Of a stretch of 64,000 nucleotides of DNA, positions 2,858 to 10,091 are shown piece by piece. Below the pieces are notes generated by a model. The model had not been told where the DNA came from and did no database searches. It worked only from the letters and a program-made list of their open reading frames with translations. The first letter of the stretch is position 1; each line of letters begins with the position of its first letter. Made by a program: the position numbers and the translations under genes. Source of the DNA: Minisyncoccota bacterium (GTDB taxonomy: Bacteria; Patescibacteriota; Minisyncoccia; Phycocordibacterales; UBA2100); the NCBI GenBank assembly GCA_022842645.1, contig JALHPE010000002.1:149047-213046 (forward strand). Direction: 5' to 3'.

Positions 2858-3550
2858 TCAGATCTCTTTGTCTTTTAAAATGGATGATTCACTATCGCTT
2901 AATAAGCCGTCTTTCATCCAAATAACTCGATCTACATATTTTTTATCTTCTGGCTCATGGGTAATCATGAGGATGGTTTGTTCCAGTTCTTTGTTGAGTT
3001 TTTGAAACAGTTTTAACACAACTACAGAGGCTTCAGTGTCGAGATTCGCCGTCGCCTCGTCTGCAAAAAGCACCTCGGGGTCATTGATAAGCGCGCGAGC
3101 GATTGCGACACGTTGCTGCTCACCCCCTGAAAGTTCTTTCGGATAATGATCGAGACGGTGTCCGAGACCAACAAGACCGAGAAGTTTCGTGGCCTTGTCT
3201 TTATCCCACACTCCCCCATGAAGCACCGAGGCCGGAAAACCGACATTTTCCAAGGCGGTGAATTCCGCAATAAGCGCATATTCTTGAAACACATAGCCAA
3301 GTCGTTGTAAGCGAAATTGTGTTTTTTCTTCATCAGAAAGATGCAATACATCCGTGCCACCGATGCGGATAGAACCTGCCGTTGGCGTGTCAATAAGTCC
3401 GAGCTGATGAAGGAGCGTTGATTTACCGCAACCGCTTCGCCCCATCAGAGCAACAAACTCACCCTTTTTAATATCGAACGAGACGCCGCGCAGGGCAAAT
3501 GTTGGCACTGCCCCCGGATACGTTTTTTCCAAATTTTTTACTGAAATCAT
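2858..3550 (-). CDS. ABC transporter ATP-binding protein (MacB/LolD-like)
   Basis: Walker A GRSGCGKST, ABC signature LSGGEQQR, Walker B LFADE. Confidence 0.85.
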   Translation of the reverse strand: MISVKNLEKTYPGAVPTFALRGVSFDIKKGEFVALMGRSGCGKSTLLHQLGLIDTPTAGSIRIGGTDVLHLSDEEKTQFRLQRLGYVFQEYALIAEFTALENVGFPASVLHGGVWDKDKATKLLGLVGLGHRLDHYPKELSGGEQQRVAIARALINDPEVLFADEATANLDTEASVVVLKLFQKLNKELEQTILMITHEPEDKKYVDRVIWMKDGLLSDSESSILKDKEI

Positions 3551-4783: not shown

Positions 4784-6358
4784 TCATTTTTTTGCAAGAA
4801 TCACAAGCTCTCCCTCGCGGACGCCGCTCATAATCTCAACATTCCCACGCGCATCGTAAATTCCGGTTGTAATTTCTCGCTCTTCCTCGGTGCGACCAGA
4901 CAGTACGCTTACATATTTGAGACCATCGCGCGTCTGTATGGCCCCGGCAGGCACAAAGAGCACCCTTTCTTTTTGAGCGACCTGGATCCAGATGTTCGCA
5001 GTCATACCCGATCGTATGCGCTCATCTTTTTGGTCAAACACCACGGTCGCTTGATAGTAAATAGCACCACTAACATTTGTTTCAGCGGGATCAATATGCG
5101 AAACAGTTCCCTTCCAGTTAAGTTCGGGAAATGCCTCAAGGGAGATGCGCACGGATTGACCAACGCGCACGAGCGCAACATTATTTTCAGAAACGTTGAT
5201 GGTGATCTGGAACGTTGCATCAGGGATCATTGAGACGATGGTGTTATTCGCTGCAACATTTTCTCCCAGTTCAGCTGTAGTGTTTGTTATGGTTCCCTTG
5301 ACTGGCGCATAAATGGCATAGTCGTTTCGCTCCGCAATGACTTGCTCAAGCGATGCACGGGCTTGTGCAATCTGGCCTTCATACACCTGAATGTCCACCG
5401 GTCGTGGAGAGGAGGTTTTGGAGCGTAACTGATTTTGCGCAGTGACAAGTGATGATTCTGCAGATCGCAACGTCCCCTGATGAGCAGTTAAATTCGTAAG
5501 CGTTGTGTTTATCGTCGTTCGAGCGGTCGCAACATTGGTTTTGTACGTATCGATATTTGTCTGCGTCACTCCACCACCTACAACCGCGGCGTTTACTAAA
5601 AGCGAAAGGTCGTCAAGATAATTGGCAACCATATTGATATTTTGGATGGCTGTGTCTCCCTTCATCACTATCGAATCTAAAGTGGAGAGCGCAGCTATGT
5701 CGGTTTGCCAGGCAATAAGCATAGATTCAAGCGCAACTCGTTCATCCTCGACGTCGAGTTGAAGCTGAGAGTCCGGAACAAGAAAAAGCAGTTGGGGGTA
5801 ACTCTTGCGTGGGTTCAAGAACATAACATCCGTCTTTGTGCGCACTGCATCGTCGGCTTTTGAAAACGCATCGCGAATAGTTGCGGCGAGATTTTGTTCA
5901 GCGTTTTTGCGCGCGGCTTCTGCGGCGATCACGCTTGATTGCGTAATGGCGATATCTTCTTGCGTTGCCCCCACGATAAGTTGTTCCAGTTTTGCTTTCT
6001 GAATATCAAGCGCCGCGTCCATGCTTGCTATCTGAGATTCAATCTGACGCGCATCAAGCTGGGCTAATAGCTGCCCCTGCTCCACCGAGTCCCCGGCCGA
6101 GACGGGGATTGATTTTATTTTTCCTGCCGCCTTAAAAGCGAGACTAATATTTGACGGACTTTCAACCGCACCATTTGCAGAAACCTCTTGCGTCAGCGTG
6201 CCTTTCTCTACTGGTGCTGTGGTATACAAATCGGCGTAGAGTATTGGCTGGAGTATCAAAAAAACAATTACAAAAAGTGGTACGAAAGCGATGAATACGG
6301 TTGTCCATGTATGCGATTTAAGGTACGCAACCACACCGGTAAGTAGATTTGTGTTCAT
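4784..6358 (-). CDS. efflux periplasmic adaptor subunit (HlyD/MacA family)
   Basis: N-terminal TM (start MNTNLLTGVVAYL...), long coiled-coil region and a beta-barrel C-terminus; lies upstream of the permease and ATPase. Confidence 0.7.
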   Translation of the reverse strand: MNTNLLTGVVAYLKSHTWTTVFIAFVPLFVIVFLILQPILYADLYTTAPVEKGTLTQEVSANGAVESPSNISLAFKAAGKIKSIPVSAGDSVEQGQLLAQLDARQIESQIASMDAALDIQKAKLEQLIVGATQEDIAITQSSVIAAEAARKNAEQNLAATIRDAFSKADDAVRTKTDVMFLNPRKSYPQLLFLVPDSQLQLDVEDERVALESMLIAWQTDIAALSTLDSIVMKGDTAIQNINMVANYLDDLSLLVNAAVVGGGVTQTNIDTYKTNVATARTTINTTLTNLTAHQGTLRSAESSLVTAQNQLRSKTSSPRPVDIQVYEGQIAQARASLEQVIAERNDYAIYAPVKGTITNTTAELGENVAANNTIVSMIPDATFQITINVSENNVALVRVGQSVRISLEAFPELNWKGTVSHIDPAETNVSGAIYYQATVVFDQKDERIRSGMTANIWIQVAQKERVLFVPAGAIQTRDGLKYVSVLSGRTEEEREITTGIYDARGNVEIMSGVREGELVILAKK

Positions 6359-6486
6359 ATGCAGGCATAGTGTAATATGAATTATCTTTACAGTAAAGAT
6401 AATATGTGGACAACGCAAACCGGGGTAGACATCTCTACGGATAAAGATACTTTGAAGTCCTGCTAAAGTTGTGGAAAGATACACAT

Positions 6487-6948
6487 ATGTCAGATATATC
6501 AAACAAACGACGTGAGGTGATGGAAGGCATGAGATCGTCTAATGAGACCGCGCTTAAGTTTTTGCGCATTTCGGCGGAACGTTCGGGCCTCCACCCTACC
6601 GATATGCGATCATTAGAGTTTCTTGCAAATAAAGAGGTTGCAACGGCGGGTGAACTATCGGCGTTTCTTGGCCTTACTTCGGGCGCAACAACGGCGCTTA
6701 TAAATCGTCTTGAAAAGCTCGAGATGATTGTTCGGAACGCAGATACCCACGACAAACGCATTATTCATATCCGCACGAATCCTCACAAGGCACTCACTCC
6801 CATGCTTCTCATGGGGCGGTTTATTAAGAAATTAGAGAAGTTTTTAGAAAAATATTCGGAGTCCGAGCTTGATGTAATCGCACGATGGAATGCCGACGTC
6901 GATGCCGCGTTTAAGAAAAGCACTGAAGATCTACTCAAATCGAAATAA
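6487..6948 (+). CDS. MarR-family transcriptional regulator
   Basis: Winged-HTH MarR-like sequence (ATAGELSAFLGLTSGATTALINRLEKLEMIVR...DKRI); divergent from the efflux operon. Confidence 0.65.
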   Translation: MSDISNKRREVMEGMRSSNETALKFLRISAERSGLHPTDMRSLEFLANKEVATAGELSAFLGLTSGATTALINRLEKLEMIVRNADTHDKRIIHIRTNPHKALTPMLLMGRFIKKLEKFLEKYSESELDVIARWNADVDAAFKKSTEDLLKSK

Positions 6949-7019
6949 CTAACCATGCTGCACTCATATTGCCATCAAGGTGTTTCCCCTATTATCGCCC
7001 ACTCAATGGGAAGGCACTT

Positions 7020-7650
7020 CGCTTAGAGTCAAAAAATTGACCTGCGGAATTTTTTGAACAAATCATATACTTTGCGCGAACCTTTTTCGAGGGGCGAAGC
7101 CCCTGACTTCGCACGCGCCGCGTGCGTGGTGGCTTGAGACCGCCAAGTACGCTCCGATCGCGCTGACAAGCGCCTCGGCGTGCGCGAGGACGCGCGCTGC
7201 AACCCCAAACATTTCCTTTCAATTTTTTGCGGCTCCCCCCTGACCCCCCGCCGAAAAGCGAAAAACAGAGGAAAGGAAATGTTTGGGTTGCTTCGCCGTT
7301 TTGAAAACTCCACAAGGGGCAACAAAGGCAAAGCCAATGAAGCCCCTTGCTCCGTAATCAAAACGGCGATCGAGACGCTTCAATGCGGTCTGCGTAAGGC
7401 GCAGTCATATTTGTTTATGTGCCTTGCCCCACCCGCCCAGTGCGCGGCGCGAAACCCGCCGCTACGCGGCGGCTCCCTGTGGATAACTCGCCTTGCGGCG
7501 ACATATACGTTTCGTATAATAATCGTGCGAGGCGGTTCTTTGAAAATCAATTCAGTGTTAGCGGCTATTCAATCGAAGATTGAGATGAACGCGCAAGCGC
7601 GCATCTGACCCCTCCCAAACGCGGAGGACACATTGCCCCGGCCATGTACA
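7020..7650. ncRNA. GC-rich, hairpin-dense non-coding region; candidate structured RNA (retron msr/msd-like or other large ncRNA); strand unknown
   Basis: No credible ORF; the six-frame ORFs here are Arg/Pro-rich artefacts of GC-rich DNA. Many perfect stems: GGGGCGAAGCCCC (7092-7108), CGCACGCGCCGCGTGCG (7115-7131), 21-bp inverted repeat GCAACCCCAAACATTTCCTTTC/GAAAGGAAATGTTTGGGTTGC (7199-7220 with 7276-7296), nested CGCCGTTTTGA/TCAAAACGGCG (7298-7308 with 7367-7377), CCGCCGC-TAC-GCGGCGG. It lies directly upstream of the HTH-RT gene pair. Confidence 0.4.
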
Positions 7651-7811
7651 TGCATTCGCATCACTACGATGCAGGCATGAACGTAGTAGGCGCACACATT
7701 GTCGTTGAACGACGCAGTGATTTAGTCATGTTAGTCATCCAGGCGAAGCATGTCAGCAGTTATATAAACTGCAATATAAATTGCTAGAAGTTCAAGAGGC
7801 AGGGACTATCC

Positions 7812-7878
7812 AAAATCGCGGTTACCAAACTCCCGTTTTGGGTATTACCGGATGCCCCCGATCGAAATTGGTAACCGC
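7812..7878. repeat. 11-13 bp inverted repeat ATCGCGGTTACCAA / TTGGTAACCGCGA enclosing a 41-nt loop
   Basis: Perfect inverted repeat read from the sequence, about 215 bp upstream of the HTH gene. Confidence 0.5.
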
Positions 7879-8092
7879 GAGAGTAGGATATGTCCCACAA
7901 CTTTATTAGCAGTCCGTCTCGTTAGCTAATGGATGTGGCCTATGAAAGACATTCGTATCTCACCTGAATTGTGGCATCCGTATCACGAGCCGGTTATCGC
8001 CTTACATGAGGTTTCTCAAGCTCTTGTGGCTTATCCTCCGGATAATCCGCATCTTGTACGACCTTTGGCGGTAATCGGCTCGTAGTCTTCCC

Positions 8093-8413
8093 ATGTATTC
8101 ATTCCCAGAACTAATCAAAAAAATACGAGAAGCGGCCGGCATGACGCAGGCCGATTTTGCGCGGGCGCTCGGCGTATCCGCCGTGCTAATTGCAATGGTG
8201 GAAACTGGGCAAAAAGAGGTTTCTAAAAATTTGCTTCGCAAAATTGCCGAGCAGTTAGATGTGCATCCGTCCTCCATAACACCTTTCCTGTTCGCGGATG
8301 AGAAAAAAGATACCCTGTCGCCAGTCGAGAAAAAGTTTATTCAGTGGGGCGAGCAACTACAGGAGCATTTGATAAAAGACCGTGCAAAACTTCTCAAAAA
8401 CCATGCGGCGTAG
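8093..8413 (+). CDS. XRE-family helix-turn-helix protein (Cro/C1-type)
   Basis: HTH_3-like GMTQADFARALGVSAVLIAMVETGQKEVSKNLLRKIAEQLDV; its stop overlaps the RT start (ccATGcggcgTAG). Confidence 0.7.
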   Translation: MYSFPELIKKIREAAGMTQADFARALGVSAVLIAMVETGQKEVSKNLLRKIAEQLDVHPSSITPFLFADEKKDTLSPVEKKFIQWGEQLQEHLIKDRAKLLKNHAA

Positions 8414-9401
8414 GCGATACCCAAAAATCCATATACAGAGCAAGAACGAGCTGGCAAAGCATATAGACAGCGCACGTCTCCCATATGAGAAAGCCCTGTC
8501 GCTCATAAACGATGTGCAAACTAACTTTGATACTTACTGGAAAGACCACCCTACGCAGTCCAAACCAGATAAACGTAAATGGGTACGAAATGCCGCAGGC
8601 ACACCTCTCGCACGGCTTCTTGATTTGATAAACGCAAAAGTTCTCACCCCCGCCGATCTGCTATTGCCAAGTTTCATCTTTGGCGGGATTGGCGGTTTGA
8701 ACCATAAAGCTGCCGTATTACATCTGCTCGGCAATAAGCGAAAACGGATTTTACTCAAACTAGATATAACGAGGTTTTTTGAGCAGATACGCCACGAGCG
8801 GGTCTATCACTTTTTCCGCGATAAGTGCAAATGCAGTGATAAGGGCGCAAAGATACTTGCTGACCTTTGCTGTGTCCGCCACGGCCCGAAGGAAAAACCG
8901 GACGCATATAAAACGATTGCTCGCGGCTTCGCCACTTCGTCGCGCCTTGCTGTCTGGTGCAATGTAGACACCTTCCTGCGCCTTGAGCGGCTTGTGCAAA
9001 AAGAATTGCGAGGCAAAGACCCCCGCATCGCCGTTTATGTAGACGACATCGGCATTACCGCAAGTAGGGCGTCGAAGGAGGATATGTTGCGGCTATATGT
9101 AAAAATAAAAACACTTTTGGAACAGGACAAGAATCAACCACTACCTCTAAACGACGACAAGACAAAAGTGATCTTCCATAGTGGCGAAACTTATGACAAA
9201 GACGGAAATTATCTTGGTAAATGGGCGTTTGAACATTTGGGCTTGCAGATGAATCGCAACTCCGTAACTATCGGTTCAAAAACGAGGGGAAAACTGGATA
9301 GAGCAACAAGCGAATTAGAAAAAAGTGATAAGAAAGACCAAACAACCAAACGACGCAGAGGAGCGTTCTTGAATTACAAACGGTATATCGAGGCAGAATA
9401 A
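8403..9401 (+). CDS. reverse transcriptase, retron-type-like
   Basis: RT motifs LLKLDITRFF (motif A Asp), RGFATSSRLA (retron QGxxxSPxLA-like), YVDDIG (YxDD), SVTIG (retron VTG-like). About 333 aa, the size of retron RTs. Overlaps the HTH gene by 11 nt. Confidence 0.75.
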   Translation: MRRRRYPKIHIQSKNELAKHIDSARLPYEKALSLINDVQTNFDTYWKDHPTQSKPDKRKWVRNAAGTPLARLLDLINAKVLTPADLLLPSFIFGGIGGLNHKAAVLHLLGNKRKRILLKLDITRFFEQIRHERVYHFFRDKCKCSDKGAKILADLCCVRHGPKEKPDAYKTIARGFATSSRLAVWCNVDTFLRLERLVQKELRGKDPRIAVYVDDIGITASRASKEDMLRLYVKIKTLLEQDKNQPLPLNDDKTKVIFHSGETYDKDGNYLGKWAFEHLGLQMNRNSVTIGSKTRGKLDRATSELEKSDKKDQTTKRRRGAFLNYKRYIEAE

Positions 9402-9409
9402 TTGCGCGA

Positions 9410-9649
9410 TTATACCGTTATTCTCTCGTAAATCATTTTTGAACCCTCCGACTGTCTAGGGAAATTGCCTTTTTCATCTGTGAACGACAGTTCTTTAGCT
9501 GGATGATTTGCTTTTTTCGGGAAAAGCGACAAAATATTTTTGATATCTGTGAATGGTGGTACTTCCAACTTTTCTCCCGCAACTTCTGAGGTATGAGCAC
9601 CTGATGAGAGCGACCCTGTGTTTGGATTTTCCTTCACAAGATTTCCCAT
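9410..9649 (-). CDS. hypothetical small protein (79 aa), convergent with the RT
   Basis: ORF only; weak RBS. Confidence 0.25.
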   Translation of the reverse strand: MGNLVKENPNTGSLSSGAHTSEVAGEKLEVPPFTDIKNILSLFPKKANHPAKELSFTDEKGNFPRQSEGSKMIYERITV

Positions 9650-9841
9650 CGCCTCGGCAGCTATTTGCCGATAAGTACAAACTGCAATTAGGTGTTCGGC
9701 AGTAGTTCATTCGTGATATTTCTCAAGGTCTTCGATTAACTCTTCCGTGAGATTCCACAAAGTATCCCATTTTTGGGAACCTTCTGAATAATCGATTCGC
9801 GGCGCGGCCGCCTCGGCCTTTCGGCCGGAGAAGTATTACTT

Positions 9842-10018
9842 AGTGACTCTAGCGGGAATCGGCCAAGAGCTCGTTTTGATTCCGTCGAATCAAAACTCCT
9901 CTCGGCCCTGCTCGCGCGACCCGTTCTACTAAACGGGTGCCCGCGCTCCCTTTCGATTCCCGCTAGAGGTCTACAAAAATATAGTTGGCCGACACGATGT
10001 GTCGTCCTCGTTATTTTT
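9842..10018. repeat. tRNA-Glu 3'-end partial duplications: direct 19-bp copy GTGACTCTAGCGGGAATCG (9842-9860), inverted copy TTCGATTCCCGCTAGAG (9946-9962), and an intervening hairpin-rich ~158-bp segment
   Basis: Exact 19-mer shared with 10019-10037. The segment between contains the perfect hairpins GTTTTGATTC-CGTC-GAATCAAAAC and ACCCGTT-CTACTAA-AACGGGT. Confidence 0.6.
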
Positions 10019-10019
10019 G

Positions 10020-10091
10020 TGACTCTAGCGGGAATCGAACCCGCCTTCCATCCTTGAGAAGGATGTGTCCTAGCCGATAGACGATAGAGCC
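10020..10091 (-). tRNA. tRNA-Glu (anticodon CTC)
   Basis: Cloverleaf folds by hand: acceptor GGCTCTA/TAGAGTC, D-stem GTCT/GGAC, anticodon stem CATCC/GGATG with loop TTCTCAA, T-arm GCGGG-TTCGATT-CCCGC. Confidence 0.8.

Follow-up and report, generated by a model that had tools for sequence, protein, structure and literature searches.

The 64,000-nucleotide stretch analyzed here (the window; contig JALHPE010000002.1 of a Minisyncoccota bacterium, positions 149,047 to 213,046) carries a hairpin-dense block at positions 7020-7650, upstream of a gene pair encoding a helix-turn-helix (HTH) protein and a reverse transcriptase (RT). We found this block, which an earlier note on the same DNA had treated as one unit, to consist of three parts, an anatomy in which we have high confidence: a conserved element of ~400 nt that we call module X (7072-7477), the promoter of a retron (7478-7527) and the 5′ part of the retron RNA. 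The coordinates 7020-7650 cut across a left-hand 45 nt, module X, the promoter and the initial ~120 nt of retron RNA (7528-7650), and the structured non-coding DNA extends past 7650, up to 8092. The HTH and RT genes belong to a type VI retron, a member from the candidate phyla radiation (CPR) of a known kind of system. Module X is independent of it and is the novel part of the block; no described family that we tested fits it, a novelty that stops short of an established new kind of system. On balance, the comparisons presented below suggest that X is a cassette-end element with a dual role, probably serving both as a structured 3′ trailer and as a site of cassette inversion or exchange.

The call of this region as non-coding was borne out. 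The gap between the MarR gene (6469-6948) and the HTH gene starting at 8093 measures 1.14 kb (6949-8092) and contains no credible open reading frame (ORF). Two ORFs within the block, 7180-7608 on the plus strand and 7029-7361 on the minus strand, gave no Pfam matches, and alignment of the window with 79%-identical relatives revealed indels of 1, 2 and 4 nt that disrupt them; both observations agree with the previous description of these Arg/Pro-rich frames as artefacts. Compared to shuffled sequences, folding was strong for 7020-7650 (z-scores of -7.5 on the plus and -6.2 on the minus strand), for 7072-7477 (-8.3 and -8.5, respectively) and for 7650-8095 (-7.1). Together, the strong folding, the lack of Pfam matches and the ORF-disrupting indels indicate that the block is real, non-coding and structured. 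The opposite explanation, in which it is decayed coding sequence or a functionless GC-rich spacer arisen by chance, could draw on the presence of the Arg/Pro-rich ORFs and on the 10 consensus pairs that are broken in the window copy of X. In addition to the missing Pfam matches and the frame disruption, it is contradicted by fold z-scores of about -8, by the 76-94% conservation of the element across many contexts and by compensatory changes beyond those of shuffled and slid controls. We regard it as extremely improbable here and as refuted for the family as a whole.

The base composition of the block, previously described as clearly different from the flanking DNA, is indeed raised, with a GC content of 57-61% against a window mean of 50% (standard deviation 3.5%, 300-nt windows), but it is not unique, a coding region at 40.9-41.1 kb having a matching GC content. 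All the stems that had been named are present, namely the mini-hairpin GGGGCGAAGCCCC (7091-7103), an inverted repeat of 21/22 nt and the stem formed by CGCCGTTTTGA (7294-7304) and TCAAAACGGCG (7358-7368). One coordinate had to be corrected: the 3′ arm of the 21-nt repeat lies at 7271-7291 and not at 7276-7296.

The comparative alignment that had been proposed as a check for covarying pairs was carried out, and it revealed compensatory pairs in X as well as covarying stems in the retron RNA. For X, we used an alignment of 15 sequences (A3) with a minus-strand consensus structure (hairpins listed in Table 1), in which 96.1% of the cells were paired. This alignment contained 13 compensatory pairs, compared to 5.0 +/- 1.6 in shuffles, none of 500 of which reached 13, and 0-4 in slid controls. 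Five compensatory pairs were found in the first X hairpin, which has 17 bp in other loci, while the long hairpin I2 showed compensatory changes from C-G to A-T and from T-A to C-G in relatives. Between the window and the X copy of L054, one of the related contigs, paired columns diverged by 16% and unpaired columns by 29%.

The independence of X from the retron is evident from its distribution. Copies collected with a 24-nt X pattern were found in 22 metagenome contigs at 76-86% identity, beside unrelated cargo: a pyrophosphatase with an APH-family kinase, an inositol monophosphatase with a NUDIX protein, or proteins without Pfam match. In 21 of these contigs the stretch homologous to the window lies within 7070-7446 by BLAST, or extends up to 7477 by profile, and never includes the retron; the exception, L054, is the same record as the retron locus L039. 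X was not found at retron loci with an RT identity of 70% or less. Both elements occur together in the window, in its closest relatives L039-L044 (RT 76% identical), which align to window positions 7106-8088 at 79% identity, and probably in L001. When the gap was searched against 33 RT loci from genome contigs, conservation ran from ~7465-7500 to the start of the HTH gene.

These results bear on both identities that had been suggested for the block. The first, a retron non-coding RNA (ncRNA) plus additional structure, applies in that the block does contain retron RNA, from ~7528 only; the bulk, 7072-7477, is a separate, conserved element. The second, a distinct large ncRNA of the kind found near tRNAs and mobile elements, describes this bulk correctly as a separate structured element, but not the last ~120 nt, which are retron RNA. 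The proposed tie to tRNAs and mobile elements was confirmed in relatives of X. A single oversized retron ncRNA spanning 7020-8092, that is an msr-msd with a lineage-specific extra 5′ domain, would fit the contiguous structured non-coding DNA directly upstream of the genes for a small protein (SP), the HTH protein and the RT, as well as the co-occurrence of X and retron in the loci named above. It is largely refuted by the comparative data and very improbable: X stands without an RT in 21 contigs, CPR retrons without X keep their promoter at the equivalent of 7493-7520, the hybrid RNA of known type VI retrons measures only ~470 nt, and the wobble pairs of X favor the other strand.

Searches for a described relative of X gave negative results. 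The Rfam check that had been proposed (GOLLD, ROOL, HEARO, group II, retron msr) was run, and no family matched. Across Rfam 15 (4227 families, both strands) the best E-value was 1.1, and a gathering-threshold scan of the whole window gave no match within the gap; a scan of 6900-8450 at E <= 10 returned chance-level matches only, with a top score of 14.7 bits for a family whose gathering score is 74. Besides the families already named, those without a match in the gap include OLE, group I introns, RNase P, transfer-messenger RNA (tmRNA), signal recognition particle (SRP) RNA and 6S RNA. The X copy of L062 also had no Rfam match, and ARAGORN detected no tmRNA. RNase P, tmRNA, SRP and 6S RNA were additionally compared with X by eye and rejected, the resemblances being short and at chance level and the models giving no support. 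The X pattern was not found in viral contigs, BLAST of X against plasmids and phages gave no match, and a repeat search of the 64-kb window yielded self-complementary matches only and no second copy of X. In the literature, we found nothing relevant on a Saccharibacteria repeat or recombinase element.

Three features of the helices are specific to the minus strand of the window: two G.U pairs within Watson-Crick helices, one of them invariant and the other present in 13 of 15 copies, and a conserved GGA/GGA internal loop. The minus strand was therefore taken as the sense strand of X, with moderate confidence. The consensus folding energy is lower on this strand (-127 versus -100 kcal/mol), which is less telling, as G-rich strands gain from wobble pairs anyway. 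The reverse possibility, that X is a plus-strand leader or small RNA transcribed from a promoter-like site at 7037-7066 and feeding or regulating the retron operon, is in our view improbable. In its favor are the promoter-like match itself, the conservation of the 7060-7080 region with L039, L056, L060, L061 and L062, a GAAA tetraloop seen in some copies when read on the plus strand, and the plus-strand fold z-score of -8.3. However, promoter-like matches occur at chance frequency (4 found against 1.7 +/- 1.4 expected), and the retron has a strongly conserved promoter of its own downstream of X. Moreover, the plus strand of X in most loci meets the 3′ end of a convergent gene and not a retron, and the conserved G.U pairs would become A.C mismatches on that strand.

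The X family, ~400 nt long, strand-specific and rich in hairpins, marks cassette ends within a single lineage of Saccharibacteria. In 15 of the 22 X copies checked, representing ~12 distinct contexts, a long minus-sense ORF ends 0-18 nt before the GGGAGCC motif at the 5′ end of X, and the L056 copy is preceded at 4 nt by the end of a tRNA-Arg; this gene context, like the wobble pairs, points to the minus strand. Downstream of SmpB-tmRNA, L051 carries a tandem of two co-oriented X copies, with a different gene preceding each. Its layout (SmpB; tmRNA 603-987; repeat 1073-1273; X at 3132-3435 and 4824-5068) looks like a cassette array, with two full copies and one partial copy in 5.2 kb, as compared to one in the 64 kb of the window. 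In relatives, the 3′ half of X (equivalent to window positions 7078-7298) often recurs in inverted orientation 1.7-3.5 kb away; in L039-L044 an inverted copy of 7106-7298 lies downstream of the cassette. Such inverted repeats are present at both segment ends in L047, L062, L039 and others, and cargo-specific -10-like boxes follow the exact inner boundary, which lies directly after GCGTCGCC. No core motif common to the two boundaries of a cassette is evident.

The inverted copies are 99% identical within a contig (245 bp in L047, 268 bp in L062) and ~85% identical between lineages, which argues for ongoing recombination between the copies. The repeat is adjoined by a 202-aa resolvase, a serine recombinase, in L039 and by large serine recombinases in L047 (519 aa, Pfam-confirmed) and L060 (532 aa, with a similar N-terminus). 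The 3′ ends of the latter two recombinase genes overlap tRNA genes, tRNA-Glu in L047 and tRNA-Leu in L060. Relative to the recombinase, the inner segment is oriented oppositely in L039 and L040, and likewise in L047 and L060.

Two further arrangements were observed at these loci. In L039-L044 (e.g. L039 1-4572 and L040 1-4525), the retron and three minus-strand genes encoding proteins of 140 aa and 221 aa and a 141-aa HTH protein lie between 100%-identical inverted repeats, a segment that may represent a flip-flop of two convergent operons. The large serine recombinase genes lie between a further pair of inverted repeats with 80-89% identity (L047 6407-6581 / 8055-8224; L060 751-890 / 2311-2461), one arm lying within the 3′ end of the recombinase gene, beside the tRNA.

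In the layout most often seen, X comes immediately behind the stop codon that ends the final gene of the cassette, on the same strand, an inverted copy of its 3′ half lies at the other cassette end, and the whole unit adjoins a tRNA or tmRNA gene, in some loci together with a gene for a serine recombinase. For the dual role that we favor, we infer that X would be transcribed as the 3′ trailer of the cassette, its hairpin stack closing, stabilizing or insulating the transcript, and that the two inverted copies would provide the sites, or the homology, for inverting and exchanging cassettes. The hairpins may act as RNA or as single-stranded DNA. In the window, the solo X would at most insulate the retron promoter from the MarR side.

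Several observations weigh against this interpretation. The two orientations come from different samples, L039 and L040 being 99.7-99.9% identical with identical repeats and ambiguous assembly paths; the same picture could arise if the recombinase gene were part of a longer repeat, or from the way the assembly ran through the identical repeats. There is no target-site duplication at the outer repeat ends of L047 and L062. Several X loci have no recombinase in the contig DNA examined, nor does the window. Since serine recombinases act on double-stranded sites, the covariation of the hairpins is left unexplained, and a role as 3′ trailer is impossible in the window, L039, L060, L045 and L059, where the neighboring gene points away from X. 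As to the sense strand, energies and z-scores do not tell the two strands of X apart, and the wobble bias in helices common to both is small (13 versus 4 cells). Finally, the window copy has the lowest pairing of all full-length copies (90%), with 10 broken pairs relative to the consensus.

X might instead be purely an RNA element, a structured minus-strand ncRNA or 3′-untranslated-region module that stabilizes, terminates or processes transcripts, with the inverted copies and recombinases as by-products of repeat recombination. We give this possibility an appreciable minority chance. It would account for the compensatory pairs in the non-repeated half as well (hairpins A and I1), for the conserved strand-specific G.U pairs and the purine-rich symmetric internal loop, for the slower evolution of paired as compared to unpaired columns, and for the position of its start, which lies 0-18 nt behind a stop codon in ~12 distinct contexts and 4 nt behind a tRNA in L056. 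On the other hand, no promoter or terminator belonging to X itself was identified, and five contexts including the window have no co-oriented upstream gene. The homogenization of the copies (99% versus ~85%), their exact boundaries and the recurrent link with serine recombinases and tRNAs would also be unexpected for a simple untranslated-region element.

We then compared X, in its favored role at cassette ends, with three kinds of known systems, whose side of the comparison is drawn from general knowledge. The 3.5-kb segment of L039-L044 resembles the Gin/Cin/Hin systems (phage Mu G segment, P1 C segment) in its two convergent gene sets between identical inverted repeats, in the small serine recombinase gene just outside one repeat and in the occurrence of both orientations, each in different samples; long inverted repeats are known from the P1 C segment. 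Unlike these systems, the window has a single copy of the repeat and lacks an invertase, the X repeats contain covarying internal hairpins, and one repeat is extended by a unique structured part of 180 nt. The cargo of X is also entirely different between lineages, some loci having large serine recombinases or none, and no crossover site was identified in the X repeats.

Like integron attC sites, X is strand-specific, forms hairpins, starts right after the stop codon of a cargo gene and is associated with variable cargo; the tandem cassette-plus-element units of L051 and the recombinase gene of L047, divergent from the cassette, are integron-like too. An attC site is a single hairpin of 57-141 nt with R/L boxes, however, and the integron recombinase is the tyrosine integrase IntI, whereas X has ~400 nt and at least five hairpins, its second site is an inverted partial copy and not an attI, and the recombinases found next to it are all serine recombinases, with no IntI seen. 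In contrast to promoterless integron cassettes, X cassettes have promoter-like -10 boxes of their own, and the window X follows no ORF. With the REP/BIME, ERIC, BOX, Correia and MITE families, X shares its non-coding, palindrome-rich and modular nature, a location 3′ of genes, optional hairpins and scattered partial copies. It differs from these elements in being much larger, in occurring once in 64 kb, in the lack of a target-site duplication and in flanking whole cassettes as long inverted repeats.

X shares some traits with invertible segments, with attC sites and with intergenic repeats, but fails defining features of each. We put forward only tentatively that X might be the defining site of an undescribed gene-cassette system of Saccharibacteria, which would invert, capture or swap cargo, for example a type VI retron or enzymes of nucleotide metabolism, by means of serine recombinases adjacent to tRNA or tmRNA genes. 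It is just as speculative that such a system would be functionally integron-like or Gin/Cin-like, but assembled from different parts. The genomes of Saccharibacteria and of other CPR bacteria are tiny, and the gain and loss of accessory genes in them is little understood. If the reading of X as a cassette-end element is true, X offers a testable handle on the turnover of cassettes beside tRNA genes and serine recombinases; it could also account for phase variation of defence systems in these bacteria and might serve as a landing site for engineering in the few cultivable, naturally competent strains. X merits follow-up. The present results also correct the annotation of the locus, as it would be tempting to mistake the large hairpin block for an oversized retron RNA.

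Table 1 Features of the module X and retron locus, in window coordinates.
Feature	Position	Strand	Remarks
A/T-rich hairpin TCAAAAAATT / AATTTTTTGA	7029..7057		Just beyond the outer edge of X, where the comparable palindrome of L062 is stronger
Module X, ~400-nt multi-hairpin element	7072..7477	- (probable)	5′ end GGGAGCC at 7477; solo copy in the window
3′ half of X	7078..7298		Duplicated in inverted orientation at the opposite cassette end in relatives; inner boundary always directly after ...GCGTCGCC
Mini-hairpin GGGGCGAAGCCCC	7091..7103		Within a variable insertion absent from some X copies; covaries with GUCGC/GCGAC in others
Long hairpin I2	7199..7291		Arms 7199-7220 and 7271-7291, one bulged C; loop C-rich on the plus and G-rich on the minus strand
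Hairpin I1	7293..7369		Read on the minus strand, invariant G.U pair and symmetric GGA/GGA internal loop
Short GC hairpin B (CTGCG-TAAGG-CGCAG)	7390..7404		
Hairpin A (CCGCCGC-TAC-GCGGCGG)	7456..7472		Shortened form of the 17-bp first X hairpin, which follows GGGAGCC elsewhere
DnaA-box-like 9-mer TGTGGATAA	7478..7486		Fixed distance, ~7 nt upstream of the -35 box
Retron promoter, sigma-70-type	7493..7520	+	-35 TTGCGG 7493-7498; 16-nt spacer; -10 TATAAT 7515-7520
Palindrome TATACG-TTT-CGTATA	7504..7518		Overlaps the promoter and its -10 box; present as TATAC-N5-GTATA in 24 of 25 loci
Hybrid RNA, ~565 nt	~7528..8092	+	Non-coding domain of ~400 nt, then SP ORF; nhmmer conservation in at least 20 loci; fold z-score -7.1
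Hairpin AGAUG...CAUCU	7583..7606	+	Conserved; near the RNA 5′ end; compensatory changes in 3 of 5 pairs
CCUCC/GGAGG hairpin	7611..7627	+	After the AGAUG...CAUCU hairpin
Hairpin I4 (TCGCGGTTACCAA / TTGGTAACCGCGA)	7816..7880	+	Conserved
SP ORF, 50 aa	7933..8085	+	ELWxPY motif; start possibly at the second ATG, 7942; 7 nt before the HTH gene
Cro/C1-type HTH protein, 106 aa	8093..8413	+	Pfam HTH_3, 3.8e-14; PADLOC HTH_VI, 1.7e-15
Reverse transcriptase, 332 aa from ATG 8403	8403..9401	+	Pfam RVT_1; YVDD catalytic motif
Pseudogene	9416..9805	-	tblastn 55% identity, E 1.6e-46, to residues 88-217 of the 221-aa protein after the RT in L039; in-frame stop
19-nt direct repeat of the tRNA-Glu 3′ end (10019-10037)	9843..9861		Exact; 157 nt downstream of the gene; 2 matches versus 0.01 expected
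tRNA-Glu (CTC)	10019..10091	-	

In the window, the cassette at whose far end X lies is decayed and linked to tRNA-Glu. The order on the minus strand is tRNA-Glu, the 19-nt repeat of its 3′ end, a pseudogene, the retron in antisense orientation and X. The 19-nt repeat has the appearance of an att-type scar left by an integrative element, placed at the tRNA-proximal end of the cassette. No right-hand repeat of the cassette and no recombinase or recombinase remnant were found in the 64 kb; L047, with the same tRNA-Glu / Mur-ligase neighborhood, has a recombinase, a right-hand repeat and different cargo. Since the right-hand repeat and recombinase are missing and one cargo gene is a pseudogene, X is the solo end of a decayed cassette, with the retron as its surviving cargo. 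The window copy of X might conceivably have lost its function.

Two minor observations concern the tRNA-proximal part of this cassette. An inverted partial copy at 9949-9961 turns 9844-9961 into a long hairpin. The 79-aa ORF at 9410-9649 proposed by the gene caller corresponds to the tail of the pseudogene, to which the N-terminal 87 residues of the 221-aa protein have no match; in the sister lineage this protein, encoded after the RT, is probably membrane-anchored.

The retron promoter is conserved across CPR loci, in 24 of the 25 related ones, with TTGACA as the -35 box in most relatives. The palindrome that overlaps it is likely to be an operator for the retron's own HTH protein, which would imply autoregulation. 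Upstream of the -35 box, the 9-mer TGTGGATAA is a perfect reverse complement of the DnaA-box consensus, TTATCCACA. Of 25 related retron loci, 12 have a 9-mer within one mismatch of it, in either orientation, equally far from the promoter, which hints that DnaA or another factor may regulate this defence retron.

The start of the hybrid RNA at ~7528 was placed according to the conserved promoter. Downstream of the hairpins near its 5′ end, loop bases 7851-7856 of hairpin I4 form a long-range stem with 7973-7978, the Trp-His-Pro codons of the SP ORF, which covaries at 6/6 pairs. A further stem, formed by 7986-7994 and 8074-8082, encloses the larger part of the SP ORF and covaries at 9/9 pairs. 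The G.U pairs of the retron RNA stems are consistent with the plus strand. The SP is a candidate toxin, and the pairing between loop and ORF may help to mask translation of the putative toxin. A possible closing stem between the 5′ end of the RNA (7527-7535) and 7914-7922, just upstream of the SP start, appeared by eye to be consistent in ~12 loci with differing sequences; its longest-helix statistic (8.3) was no better than that of shuffles (7.9), with MAFFT columns too gappy to count.

An ORF equivalent to that of the SP (47-81 aa, 20 of them 47-59 aa, with an ELWxPY-like motif) precedes the HTH gene by 6-38 nt in 26 of 27 loci from several CPR phyla, and the SP ORFs of the window and L039 are 66% identical. 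The HTH gene overlaps the start of the RT gene at 8403. Among 44 RT models of PADLOC, RT_VI matched the RT best (8.6e-24, 82 bits), followed by RT_IV (1.5e-16). We found 461 RT homologues, the named ones coming from Saccharibacteria and Patescibacteria. Against solved structures, phmmer gave no match for the RT, and the best hit of a profile search was the RT of retron Ec67 (E 0.005).

Type VI retrons comprise SP, HTH and RT genes and a hybrid RNA of ~470 nt, in which the reverse-transcription template is combined with a masked toxin ORF (bioRxiv 10.1101/2025.10.22.683967; 10.64898/2026.04.27.721009). The window locus shares with them (Retron-Vpa2; the ncRNA-SP transcript of Retron-Sen3) the SP-HTH-RT order, the overlap of the HTH and RT genes and a structured RNA that contains the SP ORF, with a long-range stem bracketing most of the SP and a hairpin-rich domain upstream; its biochemistry is presumably that of this type as well. 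It differs from Retron-Vpa2 in its Saccharibacteria/CPR host and in the length of its RNA (~565 versus ~470 nt). The features that set it apart as a variant of published type VI retrons are the covarying pairing between loop 7851-7856 and SP codons 7973-7978, the TATAC-N5-GTATA palindrome in the promoter and the DnaA-box-like 9-mer, present in half of the loci.

The SP-HTH-RT arrangement and its hybrid RNA are conserved over many CPR phyla, and the covarying pairs point to RNA contacts that would mask the toxin ORF. Among the 33 loci with this type of retron (L001-L033), RT identity to the window was 42-75% in 32, with one outlier at 35%. The labels Gammaproteobacteria, Bdellovibrionales, Bacteriovorax or Planctomycetota on a few bins may reflect mis-binning. 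The CPR phyla in which SP-HTH-RT was observed are Saccharibacteria, Wolfebacteria, Jorgensenbacteria, Harrisonbacteria, Doudnabacteria, Moraniibacteria, Magasanikbacteria and Taylorbacteria.

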